From the NCBI GenBank assembly GCA_963790475.1, contig CAWBOS010000015.1, positions 128,001 to 192,000 on the forward strand: DNA of 64,000 bases, read 5' to 3'. Source of the DNA: an uncultured delta proteobacterium (GTDB taxonomy: Bacteria > Desulfobacterota > RBG-13-43-22). The translations under genes and the position numbers were made by a program. The notes below the pieces were generated by a model that made no database searches, was not told where the DNA came from, and worked only from the letters and a program-made list of their open reading frames with translations. Below are positions 1-4,054 of this stretch, one piece after another (positions within the stretch are counted from its first letter, which is position 1; every line of letters starts with the position of its first letter).

Positions 1-441
1 GGCAATACCCTGGAGTGATCCGGAAAAACTCCCCTGCCCTCTGATCGAATCATGAATTTCTTCCGGCCCTTCCAAACTGATTTGAACCCCTTCCATACCC
101 AAGTCGGCCAGTCTGGTCGCCCTTTCCCGACTGATTAATATTCCGTTGGACAGCAAATACCGCTCAAACCCTTTCCTACCCATAATCTCTAAAATCTCAA
201 AGAGATCCGTCCTTAATAAGGGTTCTCCGCCGGTTACATTAAAACTTGGAGTAAAAGAGATTTCGTAAGCCTCCGACCAAGCCTGAAGCATCTTCCCCAC
301 CTCTTCTATGCCTTGCCCGATTTCAGACAGGGACATCTCCCGGGAAAACGTCCCATCTTGATAGCAATGCCGGCAATTAAGATTACATCGCTCGGTCAGG
401 TGCCATTGGACAAAAAAATCAAAAGAAGCGTTTTTAATCAT
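1..441 (-). CDS. Radical SAM protein, probable SPASM-type peptide maturase (5' part only, runs off the window)
   Basis: Manual translation from ATG at 441: MIKNASFDFFVQWHLTERCNLNCRHCYQ... with CxxxCxxC, TGGEPLLR, LLSNG and QISLEG motifs. Absent from the ORF track because no stop lies in the window. Confidence 0.9.
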   Translation of the reverse strand, partial: MIKNASFDFFVQWHLTERCNLNCRHCYQDGTFSREMSLSEIGQGIEEVGKMLQAWSEAYEISFTPSFNVTGGEPLLRTDLFEILEIMGRKGFERYLLSNGILISRERATRLADLGMEGVQISLEGPEEIHDSIRGQGSFSGSLQGIA

Positions 442-510
442 GAAAAAAATGAATTTCTCTTTGGACCGTTTGGCTTTGATTCCTTCAGAATAGATTTTTA
501 CGGGGAGGAA

Positions 511-554
511 AAGGCGGATAAGCTTATTAGATCAAAAGCCTGCCCATCCGCCTT
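511..554. terminator. Stem-loop between the small peptide gene and the radical SAM gene
   Basis: AAGGCGGAT...ATCCGCCTT 9-bp inverted repeat with an inner AAGCTT/AGGCTT-type stem, flanked by short T runs. Confidence 0.55.
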
Positions 555-561
555 CTTTTTT

Positions 562-580
562 CGCTGCTATCCAAGCAACG
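562..580 (-). promoter_or_regulatory. Candidate bacterial SECIS hairpin
   Basis: Minus strand CGTTGCT-TGGAT-AGCAGCG: 7-bp stem with one G-U pair and a G-containing apical loop that starts 26 nt after the first in-frame TGA. Confidence 0.55.
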
Positions 581-704
581 TTCAGGATTTGCAACTCTCT
601 CACTTGTGGCATACCTGACCAGGATTTGTATTCAAGACCTTCTTCACTTTACCCCAATAGGCAGCCTCCTTGGCCATGACCTTAGGGTTCAGCTTATTGG
701 TCAT
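567..704 (-). CDS. Putative selenocysteine-containing radical SAM target peptide (45 aa if both TGA are read as Sec)
   Basis: MTNKLNPKVMAKEAAYWGKVKKVLNTNPGQVCHK(TGA)ESCKS(TGA)TLLG(TAG). TGA codons at 602-600 and 584-582. AGGAGG/GGGGGTG RBS and a sigma70-like promoter lie upstream. Confidence 0.7.
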
Positions 705-739
705 CCCGATCCACCCCCTCCTATCAATAGACTGAATCT

Positions 740-767
740 ATGATAGCACCTGGAGAAAGGATGTCAA
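740..767 (-). promoter_or_regulatory. Sigma70-like promoter of the peptide/rSAM unit
   Basis: Minus strand TTGACA (767-762), 16-nt spacer, TATCAT (745-740) preceded by TG-n (extended -10). Confidence 0.65.
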
Positions 768-787
768 AATCTTTTTTAGTCGCAATC

Positions 788-2411
788 TTATTTAATCCGG
801 ATAATCTTACCTTCCTGGGTGTTAATGAAATTCACTTTGGACCAAAGAGAAAAGAATACCTCCGGTCTGAACCGTGAAAGCGGTTTAAACCCTTCCCGGG
901 TGGCGGCGTAAAGACGGCCTTCCGCCAGCAGCTTTTCGAAAAGTTCAGCCCCGACTGCCGCTCTCTTGCCCTTGCTTCGGGCTATCTGTCAGGGCTTCTT
1001 CAAGGTCAATCGAATGGTCCTCGAAAGAGATACCCTTGAAAAAATTGATGATCCGCGTAGCAACAAAAAGGGTAAAGATATCTTCCCGCTTAACTCCATC
1101 GGTTTCCAGTCCCAGGGCGGTAAGCCGGGATTTAAAAATATCCTCTTCAGTCTGTTCCGGAAACTTTTGGGCAATGGGCGTGCGGGGAGTCAAATAAAAA
1201 GGCGAGGCCCCCAGGAGAACAGGAAGCCGGCTGTTCAGCCGCAGGGTCCTGATCATCGACGTCAGGGATTCTCCCGGTAATCCTAAAATCTGGTAGGAAA
1301 CGATCTTAAATCCCAAATGGGATGCCTCGGCTACCACTCGAAGATATTTTCCCATTCTTTGGGACCGGAGCGTTTCCTTCCGGACCACCGGATTGGAAGT
1401 CACCAGGGAAAGATTCAGATGGGTGAAACCGGCCTCCCTCATCATTCGCAATAATTCCTCATCCAGACTTTGATAGGAGATGCCGTTCATGGCCAGCAAT
1501 TGAATTTCCCCGGGAGGAAAGCCTTGCCTGATTTTTCGGCAAAGGTTTTTCATCTCCTCCTGGTCATAGGTAAGGTTGTCGTCTTCAAAATCAAAGACCC
1601 GGTAGCCTTCCCGATACCGACGTTCCATTTCTTCGAATACGTCTTGGGCGGATCTTCTTTGATAGCCGGGGAAGGTGCTGTGAACCGAACAAAATGAGCA
1701 ATGATGGGGACAACCTCGGGAGGTGAGAATAAAACACAAGGGCCGGTTTTCATATCGATAGGTCCGCCCATCCAAATCCGAAAAATCCGGCAGGGGGAGT
1801 TCTTCTATGGGGAAAGGATCGGCCTGAGGATTGAAAATCAGACGGCCTGCCTGCTTATATCCGAGGCCGGGAATCTGCTCCAATCCTTTGCCGCCTTGCC
1901 AGGCCCGGATCAATTCCACCAGGGGCCGCTCCCCCTCCCCCCGGATCACCCAATCCACTGCCGGGTCCTTAAGCATTATTTCAGGCGCAGCCGAAATATG
2001 GGATCCCCCGAGGACGATAGGGCAATGAGTTTTTTCTTTGATGGCCTTGGCCGCCTGCAGTACCTCCCGATAAAAAGGCGAGAAAAGCGAGGAGATCCCC
2101 ACCAGGTCAGGTTTTTCAAGGGCCGTTTCCCGGGCAATGGTTTCAAACGAAGCTCCGAAGTGATAGTAGTGATGGAAAAGGGAGAAAGGGCTTTGGTCCG
2201 GCCAGGGGTAGTATTCTTTCAGATAGGTCAACCCTTCAGGCAAAACAATGGTCCGTCTTCCCCGGCCCTGATGAAAATCCTTGAGGACTACCTCGACCTC
2301 AGGTAAGTGCTTTTTGACCGCCGCTTTCAAATAGGCCAGGCCTAAAGGCTGAAGCCTTACCTTGGTATCATAAAAATCCTGAATGGGAGGCTGGACAAGA
2401 ACTAGTTTCAT
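788..2411 (-). CDS. Cobalamin-binding radical SAM protein (frameshift near 990)
   Basis: PLGLAYL, GGSH, RGEGE and TSRGCPHHCSFC motifs. After about 990 a second frame continues IARSKGKRAAVGAELFEKLL...IIRIK to a TAA at 788. Confidence 0.85.
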
Positions 2412-3710: not shown

Positions 3711-4054
3711 TATATCAAAATCAGTTATAGCTCAAATCTGAAGGCTCAGAGAAACCGCTTAGGCTTTGGGCTATGAAAGCCAGAAGTCGACTTTTGGGAC
3801 ATCAACAAATGAAAAAACGTATAGCTTCCTGAAATCGTGCAAATTGCTTTTTTGGAAAATCAGAGGAGTACAAATGGAATTCGTTTAAGGATCCCCTCCA
3901 AAATGAGGGTCTCAGCCCAATGAAAAACCTTCTATTTACTATTCTTAAAATCGTGCATAATCCATTCTATCCAATGGCTAGATCAGTAAGGTAATACGTC
4001 TTCTATCATCGCCACTTTACGCTTAAGGGAGGCAAGCAGATGGAGGAATTTAAG

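Follow-up and report, generated by a model that had tools for sequence, protein, structure and literature searches.

The stretch of DNA considered here (the window) is a 64,000-nucleotide (nt) segment from an uncultured delta proteobacterium (contig CAWBOS010000015.1, positions 128,001 to 192,000; G000:C15:128001-192000 in the numbering used below, i.e., contig C15 of genome G000). Its first 767 nt carry, on the minus strand, a small unit made up of a promoter-like site, a ribosome-binding site, a gene for a short selenocysteine (Sec)-containing peptide, two hairpins and the beginning of a gene for a radical S-adenosylmethionine (rSAM) enzyme with a SPASM domain. Peptide and enzyme probably form a two-gene module in which the enzyme acts on the 40-residue selenopeptide. 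A first-pass annotation, made from the letters alone, had marked the promoter, ribosome-binding site, short open reading frame (ORF) and rSAM gene on this strand, all of which were found as written and at the same coordinates.

Layout of the locus

The peptide gene opens with an ATG at 704..702 (all features of the unit lie on the minus strand), 6 nt behind a Shine-Dalgarno run, AGGAGGGGGTGG (711..722). Of the 65 related peptide genes listed, nearly all have a AGGAGGTG-type run ahead of the start codon. Further upstream is a sigma-70-type promoter-like site, TTGACA-16-TATCAT, with a TG preceding the -10 element (740..767; 11 of 12 matches). One such site was found in 1200 nt against 1.4 expected, which on its own is within chance; the same site also precedes a peptide paralogue on contig C10. 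Under translation table 11 the ORF has 34 codons (600..704) and ends at a TGA (600..602). The letters that follow are GAG AGT TGC AAA TCC, then another TGA (584..582) and, after four codons, a TAG at 569..567. Read through the first TGA, the coding sequence has 40 codons (585..704) and comprises a leader, M1..V31, and a core, C32-H-K-U35-E-S-C38-K-S, with conservation at the amino acid level that extends beyond both recoded positions. U35 is the TGA at 600..602, a TGA in all family comparisons; Cys38 is a TGC (591..593), at a site that carries another TGA (Sec) elsewhere in the family; and the true stop is the TGA at codon 41 (582..584), which is TAA, TAG or TGA among relatives.

Two hairpins follow. 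The first, a selenocysteine insertion sequence (SECIS) in the 3' untranslated region (562..580), is recognised by fold and covariation; the second, recognised by fold, resembles an intrinsic terminator and lies between the peptide and enzyme genes (505..556). The enzyme gene starts with QWHLTERCNLNCRHCY, and the window holds the first 147 of its 352 codons (1..441), assigned by domains and invariant cysteines. It ends at C15:127383, left of the window (whole gene L001:9383-10441), and the part beyond the window end was read on the same contig. That the SPASM domain would lie outside the window had been anticipated by the first-pass annotation, and it was found there. The locus therefore encodes a leader-plus-core precursor together with a putative modifying enzyme.

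A conserved selenopeptide family

Homologues were gathered through the enzyme alone, with the peptide ignored, and the upstream sequence was inspected afterwards. In a first sample of 61 related genomes, an enzyme homologue at E 1e-60 or better was present in 17, amounting to 19 loci. The peptide is visible at 17 of these; the other two are a locus with just 138 nt upstream and a paralogue of 38% identity. Codon 35 is TGA at 17 of 17 loci and codon 38 is TGA at 16 of 17, with TGC solely in the window. Codon 41 is TAA at 9, TAG at 5 and TGA at 3. A scan with an rSAM pattern, using one genome per species, gave 347 relatives, and the counts over 80 loci given below refer to the best 80 of these 347, for which only metagenome-assembled genomes (MAGs) were seen as sources. 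The peptide lies upstream of the enzyme at 65 of the 80. The remaining 15 include 3 loci with less than 140 nt upstream, 2 with a divergent variant (C-x-K-TGA-x-x-TGA) and 10 with no peptide within 420 to 600 nt. Among the 64 distinct complete peptide genes from the rSAM-anchored loci, codons 35 and 38 are TGA/TGA in 64 of 64. The stop comes after a two-residue tail as TGA in 31, TAA in 14 and TAG in 5; the other 14 genes have a three-residue tail and stop one codon later (TAA 8, TAG 6). The TAA and TAG codons at position 41 in relatives, together with this one-codon shift, indicate that TGA41 is the stop and that the peptide has 40 residues.

These results both support and amend the first-pass annotation. 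Its short ORF was right in the positions of the start, TGA35 and C38 but was carried on to the TAG, and in fact ends at codon 41. Codon 41 had been taken as a second Sec, an assignment to be given up, by the annotation's own account, if relatives carried TAA or TAG there, as they do at 14 of 17 loci. The motif it proposed, CxxUxxCxxU, is likewise replaced by C-x-x-U-x-x-C here and C-x-x-U-x-x-U in the family, since Cys38 had been missed as the position where Cys and Sec exchange. The alignment check it had set for codon 35 came out in its favour, with TGA in every family homologue, conservation going on beyond it, and Cys (TGC) in the genome's own paralogue at C10:535053. Judged by this conservation, the TGA at codon 35 encodes selenocysteine; the family shares the motif C-[HRQL]-K-U-[KN]-x-U-K-[STNA], of which the window copy is an unusual U...C variant.

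The peptide is strongly conserved across MAGs of sulfate-reducer-type bacteria from two phyla, Thermodesulfobacteriota and Nitrospirota. E13 and W17 are invariant in the leader. Downstream of both TGAs, K39 and S40 are conserved as amino acids: codon differences at K39 are mostly synonymous (AAG/AAA), and the last Ser is drawn from both codon boxes (AGC 37, AGT 5, TCA 5, TCC 4, TCT 4, TCG 1). This is conservation at the protein level past an in-frame UGA. A metagenome scan with a pattern open to TGA, TGC or TGT at both sites (at least 120 stretches) gave, among the matches listed, 80 loci and 79 family members, with TGA/TGA in 79 of 79. The single TGA/TGT match has no leader and was rejected as a chance hit.

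A profile of the peptide searched against 1.84 billion representatives returned 111 matches. Nearly all stop at profile position 34 or earlier, and one row excepted, none of the 111 extends into the core. For example, of ten matches inspected, four end at residue 34, four break off earlier or are read differently before it, one was called with TGA as Trp and one is an unrelated repeat protein. An all-Cys peptide was found neither among the 111 matches nor among the 79 metagenome members listed, which suggests that Sec is near-obligate in the family. The 34-residue product gave no usable match in a protein-atlas search. Since gene callers stop at residue 34 or earlier, selenoproteome censuses and mining for RiPPs, the peptides made by ribosomes and modified after translation, have probably missed the peptide. 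The first-pass annotation had supposed as much, and both the 34-codon table-11 ORF and the conserved TGA35 agree with it.

The SECIS element and the terminator

The window's SECIS hairpin (580..562) has a 7-bp stem, CGUUGCU/AGCAGCG, and a UGGAU loop, and folds at -9.4 kcal/mol (z -3.2). Relatives carry GUUGCY-GGUC(N)-RGCAAC. A GGUC loop and a spacing of about 11 nt are those of classical fdh SECIS elements, and the range of UGA-SECIS spacings accepted for bacteria serves as the yardstick. The stem starts 10 to 13 nt past the second UGA and 19 to 22 nt past the first; in the window these distances are 10 nt past codon 38 and 19 nt past UGA35. In an alignment of 60 sequences, 89.3% of cells pair, and both sides change in 5 of 7 pairs. 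For instance, pair 41-54 is CG in 30 sequences and UA in 27, and pair 37-58 is UA in 54 and CG in 4. The covariation score was matched by 0 of 500 shuffles, and when partners were slid as a control, pairing fell to 15 to 75%. No Rfam match was obtained at E up to 1 over window positions 1..1200. The loop has a G at position 1 or 2, a feature stressed for bacterial SECIS elements (excerpt of PMC13582414). From these compensatory changes, the letters read as 'TLLG-TAG' are a SECIS stem-loop kept as RNA and not as protein. The first-pass annotation had placed a SECIS-like hairpin after the TAG. That structure is the terminator (556..509), and the true SECIS lies within what had been read as the last five codons.

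The second hairpin folds over 556..509 with a 15-bp stem at -22.4 kcal/mol (z -2.8) and is followed by the U-run UUUUCCU. A long hairpin is found at the equivalent place in nearly every related locus, with a T-run after it in most, and also 3' of unlinked peptide genes. It resembles a leaky terminator separating the peptide gene from that of the enzyme. Its arms are conserved in sequence across lineages (GGCAGATATGGC ... GCCATATCTGCC type; related loci L021-L100, e.g., L043, L060 and L065), beyond what a plain terminator needs, which may mark a binding site or belong to a regulatory switch.

Linkage of peptide and enzyme

The presence of the peptide upstream at 65 of 80 enzyme-anchored loci bears out the rSAM partner proposed in the first-pass annotation. 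The link also appears from the side of the peptide: the enzyme gene follows on the same strand at 48 of the 60 metagenome loci (among the matches listed) that extend 500 nt or more downstream. Five genomes in which the enzyme has another gene upstream were searched whole, and in 5 of 5 exactly one complete peptide gene was found elsewhere; a reversed control pattern gave 0 matches in the same five genomes.

Co-occurrence was counted in two samples, one of 61 genomes around the source genome and one of 61 around a Thermodesulfovibrionales genome. Since the sampled genomes are kin, the counts are not independent events. In the first, 16 genomes have both enzyme and motif, 43 have neither, 1 has an rSAM-like match only (G023, 41% identity) and 1 the motif only (G018, where the motif lies at the contig's very end and the enzyme gene would be cut off). 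Five extra matches to the 24-mer pattern in this sample showed no peptide ORF at the four inspected; the fifth (G002:C455) is the same word. In the second sample, 18 have both, 39 neither, 1 the enzyme only (G103) and 3 the motif only (G088, G110 and G121, with atypical words). Within one genus, the peptide/enzyme pair is gained and lost jointly, and a neighbouring gene for a B12-binding rSAM protein stays.

The enzyme

The enzyme has 352 residues and only two recognisable domains, Radical_SAM (PF04055, 76.2 bits) and SPASM (PF13186, 39.8 bits). The radical SAM core begins at residue 15, with no domain ahead of it. Its invariant cysteines comprise the CX3CX2C triad, C19/C23/C26, and seven in the SPASM part, C253, C271, C309, C312, C318, C321 and C344. 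With seven ligands shared between two clusters, one iron would stay open to a substrate thiolate or selenolate, as we presume from structures such as that of CteB. By fold and sequence, the nearest solved relatives are SkfB, PqqE, SuiB, MoaA, anSME and CteB, of which all except MoaA are peptide maturases. An AlphaFold2 model of the enzyme has a mean predicted local distance difference test score (pLDDT) of 71.9 and a predicted template modelling score (pTM) of 0.76; the barrel is good and the SPASM part, modelled without clusters, is poor. No NCBIfam equivalog cut-off was reached by the enzyme among the best-scoring models (AhbD 175.7 of 500 bits, NirJ2 168.7 of 500 and SbtM 140.7 of 350), and its relatives carry public names that are generic or read 'AdoMet-dependent heme synthase'. 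The contig to the left, where the first-pass annotation had suggested looking for a SPASM domain and for the other genes of a RiPP cluster, holds the former; no RiPP recognition element (RRE)/PqqD domain, protease or exporter was found in the neighbourhood.

A predicted leader site

The complex was folded from the enzyme, the window's 34-residue table-11 product, three 4Fe-4S clusters and SAM. All three runs gave an interaction prediction score from aligned errors (ipSAE) of 0.87, against at most 0.01 in 3 controls. Among the pairs used for calibration, 51 of 78 solved complexes attain the mark, as do 2 of 108 mismatched pairs; the ligands included in the fold make these counts only rough here. 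At least 84% of contacts are common to the runs, and the partner pLDDT is at least 74. The tightest contacts in the model join peptide E13 and W17 with enzyme W55, Y59, R287 and W290. On the enzyme side, W55, R287 and W290 are invariant columns and Y59 is conserved at 90% or more. The contacted enzyme helix (residues 38-59) corresponds to a 14-residue gap in the alignment with the genome's own AhbD, and is thus a family-specific insertion and the predicted leader site. Peptide residues 27-34 reach G229-P231, G251-A254 (including C253) and C321, beside the auxiliary-cluster ligands. The model supports binding of the leader to the enzyme.

Interpretation

In the two-gene module that we favour, the peptide gene would be driven by its own promoter and strong ribosome-binding site. 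A SelB-type SECIS just past the stop would recode UGA35 and, elsewhere in the family, also the UGA nine bases on, while the hairpin terminator would limit read-through into the enzyme gene. The enzyme would be a minimal AhbD-like SPASM protein without an RRE. Its helix 38-59 (W55) and a SPASM helix (R287, W290) would hold the leader helix (E13, W17), and the C-terminal core, C-x-K-U-x-x-U/C-K, would thereby be set beside the auxiliary iron-sulfur clusters, where radical chemistry would presumably take place on the chalcogen residues. Crosslinks from Se or S to carbon, in the style of ranthipeptide and sactipeptide synthases, are the most likely outcome on our analysis. They are ranked first because PapB and Tte1186 form an Se-C bond in vitro with Sec-substituted substrates; these enzymes accept Sec for Cys, with an Se-Fe contact at the auxiliary cluster (excerpt of PMC10177961). 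Oxidation or cyclisation of the SbtM or anSME type (excerpt of PMC9204691) would be the second most likely.

Several points weigh against the module. The peptide is known from its gene sequence, and both its role as a substrate and the chemistry are inferred; a look for RNA sequencing runs bearing on the locus turned up none. The pair is unlinked at 12 of the 60 peptide-anchored loci (among the matches listed) and at 10 of the 80 enzyme-anchored loci. The best NCBIfam scores of the enzyme are for tetrapyrrole enzymes (AhbD and NirJ2), not peptide maturases. The modelled complex used the 34-residue product, no alignments and ligands outside the calibration, and covered the peptide up to K34, short of the Sec/Cys core beyond it. 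The window copy is the most divergent of the genome's three paralogues (E36, Q30, C38), and a Cys-inserting tRNA(ReC) could read one UGA in some genomes. That a single SECIS can decode two UGAs nine bases from each other has been proposed and not demonstrated (excerpt of PMC13582414). Lastly, no RRE/PqqD domain, protease or exporter was found in the enzyme neighbourhoods, so this is not a classical exported RiPP cluster. The lack of a nearby protease or exporter, together with conservation in Thermodesulfobacteriota and Nitrospirota MAGs, leads us to lean toward an intracellular product rather than an antibiotic.

A more ambitious version of the module, which we put forward tentatively and hold to be distinctly less probable than the module itself, is that the product is a selenium peptide cofactor or an intracellular redox or metal factor. 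The crosslinked or cyclised double-Sec core would then be the first natural peptide of the selenoether or Se-heterocycle kind to fill a housekeeping role, spread from Thermodesulfobacteriota to Nitrospirota. In some lineages, proteins encoded immediately downstream may complete it (an ICMT/PEMT-type methyltransferase) or handle it (a YceI-type lipid-binding protein).

The alternative that survives best is that the peptide is already a finished small selenoprotein, a redox or metal-binding C-x-x-U-x-x-U tail on a helical handle, and that it is the enzyme's partner rather than its substrate. It could serve as a donor of electrons, selenium or metal, or as a chaperone, with the enzyme acting on another molecule such as a tetrapyrrole. 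The enzyme's highest scores, of AhbD/NirJ type, and its 31% identity to the genome's own AhbD fit this well, as does the absence of a protease or exporter nearby. Very strong peptide conservation over two phyla also suits a housekeeping factor better than an antibiotic, peptide genes are often solitary with their own promoter and terminator, and a binding model cannot separate a partner from a substrate. However, the tetrapyrrole-family scores are far under the cut-offs, and the true AhbD is encoded elsewhere (532 bits). The model also threads peptide residues 27-34 to the surroundings of the auxiliary-cluster ligands, C253 and C321, which we take, from the structures of CteB and SuiB, to be substrate positions in SPASM maturases. 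To our knowledge, all short Cys-rich peptides encoded with a SPASM enzyme that have been tested have proved to be its substrates. On balance we regard a partner role as rather unlikely.

Far less credible is a regulatory leader, in which ribosomes pausing at two UGAs would sense Sec-tRNA and tune the terminator, making expression of the rSAM gene responsive to selenium. Two rare recoding codons do stand some 25 to 45 nt before a strong terminator hairpin ahead of the enzyme gene, and across lineages the arms of the terminator keep their sequence to an unusual degree. Yet protein-level conservation covers the entire peptide, including the invariant E13 and W17 at a distance from the UGAs, which is unlike attenuation leaders, and the leader is predicted to dock on the enzyme. 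The peptide gene, SECIS and terminator lie remote from any rSAM gene in 5 of 5 tested genomes, and likewise in two more such copies in the source genome, with nothing to attenuate. No antiterminator pairing was found, no systematic search having been made. A 45-residue precursor, C-x-x-U-x-x-C-x-x-U-TLLG with Sec at 35 and 41 and a SECIS after the TAG, can be dismissed: codon 41 of the window is indeed a TGA in the three-residue register and 'TLLG' is kept in close relatives, but the stops at codon 41 in 14 of 17 relatives' loci, the stop one codon later and out of register in 14 of 64 distinct genes and the compensatory changes that mark 'TLLG-TAG' as the SECIS stem-loop leave it next to no room.

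Paralogues and selenocysteine machinery of the genome

The genome carries three peptide paralogues, whose codons 35/38 read U/C (window), U/U (C10:222886) and C/U (C10:535053); codon 35 is TGC in the last, and codon 38 is TGA in both C10 copies. Cys and Sec are therefore exchanged at both sites within one genome. All three have the same type of promoter and the same ribosome site, SECIS and terminator. The plus-strand copy at C10:222886 (L106, about 3890-4010) is the canonical U/U form with SECIS and terminator. Downstream of it is a remnant of an rSAM N terminus, with some 22 family-like residues before it breaks off, while a decayed C terminus of the B12-rSAM protein lies upstream; the region looks like a degraded duplicate of the entire window locus. 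The minus-strand copy at C10:535053 (L107 3880..4160) is the C35/U38 form, with a promoter TTGACA-17-TATCAT, SECIS and terminator. It has no rSAM gene nearby and adjoins, in convergent orientation, a YceI-family gene (L107 3195..3767).

The genes for Sec incorporation, which the first-pass annotation had wished to see confirmed, are all in the genome: tRNA-Sec (C6:520121-520218), selA, selB and selD score over curated cut-offs, and selD carries a TGA of its own. Intact selA is on contig C20. A second selA-like region (C13:443305-444664) is in four pieces with an internal TAA, and is either a decayed copy or an artefact of assembly or binning; the contamination estimate of the genome is 9.68%. 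Two paralogous ORFs on contig C12 (1018360-1018842, plus strand, and 164126-164635, minus strand) contain an in-frame TGA (KWFGQ-U-GFESLAV) and are conserved beyond it, with a GCUGGC-GGUC(N)-GCUGGY hairpin 11 nt past the TGA. They match the MerB-like SaoL weakly (37.3 of 140 bits) and are probably further selenoproteins of the genome.

Neighbouring genes

The gene directly upstream of the unit encodes the B12-binding rSAM protein (945..2411, minus strand). It was considered as a member of the system and rejected, being syntenic in just 9 of 80 loci and present in all 13 genomes of the same genus, including five (G001, G004, G005, G011 and G012) that have neither the SPASM enzyme nor the motif. 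A search of the second sample's 61 genomes, run without a positive control, gave no match to it at E 1e-50 or better. It is a neighbour whose distribution is independent of the peptide/SPASM pair. Downstream, gmhA was likewise rejected, as it is adjacent in 1 of 80 loci.

Other genes recur behind the enzyme. A membrane methyltransferase of the PEMT/ICMT family follows directly on the same strand in 14 of 80 loci, sometimes overlapping the stop (e.g., L098 4032-4631 and L074 4081-4617), and a YceI-like protein follows in 11 of 80; 36 of 80 loci have no same-strand ORF there. The methyltransferase and the YceI-like protein are possible lineage-specific partners for tailoring or handling. About 7 kb left of the enzyme gene, on the opposite strand, lies what by eye is a three-gene ABC transporter with a periplasmic binding protein, a permease and an ATPase (L001 3..2616; C15:118003-120616). 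Its substrate is probably an oxyanion, for example tungstate or molybdate; nothing was seen that ties it to the module.

Comparison with known systems

The closest parallel is SbtA/SbtM (TIGR04081/TIGR04082; 'selenobiotic' or 'selenobacteriocin'), in which a ribosomal Sec peptide is likewise encoded beside an rSAM/SPASM gene with a SECIS after the UGA. SbtA contains selenocysteine naturally, in the current reading probably two or more residues, and the thio(seleno)oxazole system occurs in Geobacter and Desulfobacteria-type anaerobes (excerpts of PMC9204691 and PMC11002830). The C-terminal 318 positions of SbtM are homologous to the enzyme (140.7 and 139.7 bits in two scans, positions 199-516 of 516), but the first 200 or so model positions are missing and the score falls short of the cut-off of 350, which places the enzyme outside TIGR04082. 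None of 48 family peptides matches TIGR04081. The Gly-rich GGUG/SGUG Sec motif of SbtA (excerpts of PMC9204691 and PMC13188914) is absent; here the C terminus is Lys-rich, C-x-K-U-K-x-U-K-S, and the SECIS lies entirely past the stop codon. The first-pass annotation was thus right to set the pair apart from the 'selenobiotic' family.

The SCIFF/ranthipeptide systems (CteB, Tte1186) and PapA/PapB share with the present one a peptide of about 40 to 45 residues whose leader is helical and whose chalcogen residues cluster at the C terminus, and a SPASM enzyme containing auxiliary clusters. No SCIFF or ranthipeptide model was among the peptide matches, so that the echo of a SCIFF leader perceived in the first-pass annotation finds no counterpart, and the enzyme scores 61.7 bits against the PapB cut-off of 340. 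Ranthipeptide/SCIFF maturases are expected to have an N-terminal RRE, which this enzyme lacks, and Asp, Glu or Thr acceptor residues are missing from the core. In PapB and Tte1186, Sec was a synthetic substitution, whereas in the present family it is natural and near-obligate.

AhbD and NirJ resemble the enzyme in length and domain order. However, the score of 175.7 bits is far from the TIGR04545 cut-off of 500, which the true AhbD of the genome (C6:292741-293757) passes with 532.2 bits. AhbD has a gap where the present family has an extra helix (residues 40-63, approximately), and unlike AhbD and NirJ, the enzyme co-occurs with a peptide. A different kind of likeness is found in the UxxU and 'X-star' selenoproteins (FmdB-family UxxU, UXX-star and UXXU-type Group 4 hydrogenases), which also have two Sec residues separated by two others. 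There, as here, Sec stands a few residues from the stop, which places the SECIS in the 3' untranslated region. The UxxU pairs are presumably read with a single downstream SECIS (excerpt of PMC13582414), and the families are tabulated in PMC13188914 (excerpt). These are folded proteins or domains, in contrast to a 40-residue peptide tied to an rSAM/SPASM enzyme, and none of their NCBIfam models matches the peptides. A C-x-x-U-x-x-U entry was not found in an excerpt of the selenoprotein family table of the same source, a 2026 review.

No model in NCBIfam release 20 or Pfam matches any of the 48 peptides, and full-text literature searches, which covered main texts, gave no description of the family. 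Together, these comparisons point to a distinct, widespread and undescribed family of natural selenopeptides with an rSAM/SPASM partner. SbtA/SbtM is the only characterised natural pair of a selenocysteine peptide and an rSAM maturase (excerpt of PMC9204691). If the module is correct, the present pair would be a second, unrelated to the first and much more widespread. The retention of Sec at both sites by essentially all members argues that the molecule exists for its selenium chemistry. The family also offers a clean natural case in which to ask how one SECIS would serve two UGAs nine bases apart. With a peptide of 40 residues, an enzyme of 352 and natural Cys variants in one genome, the system is small enough that the action of a SPASM enzyme on native selenocysteine can be tested.

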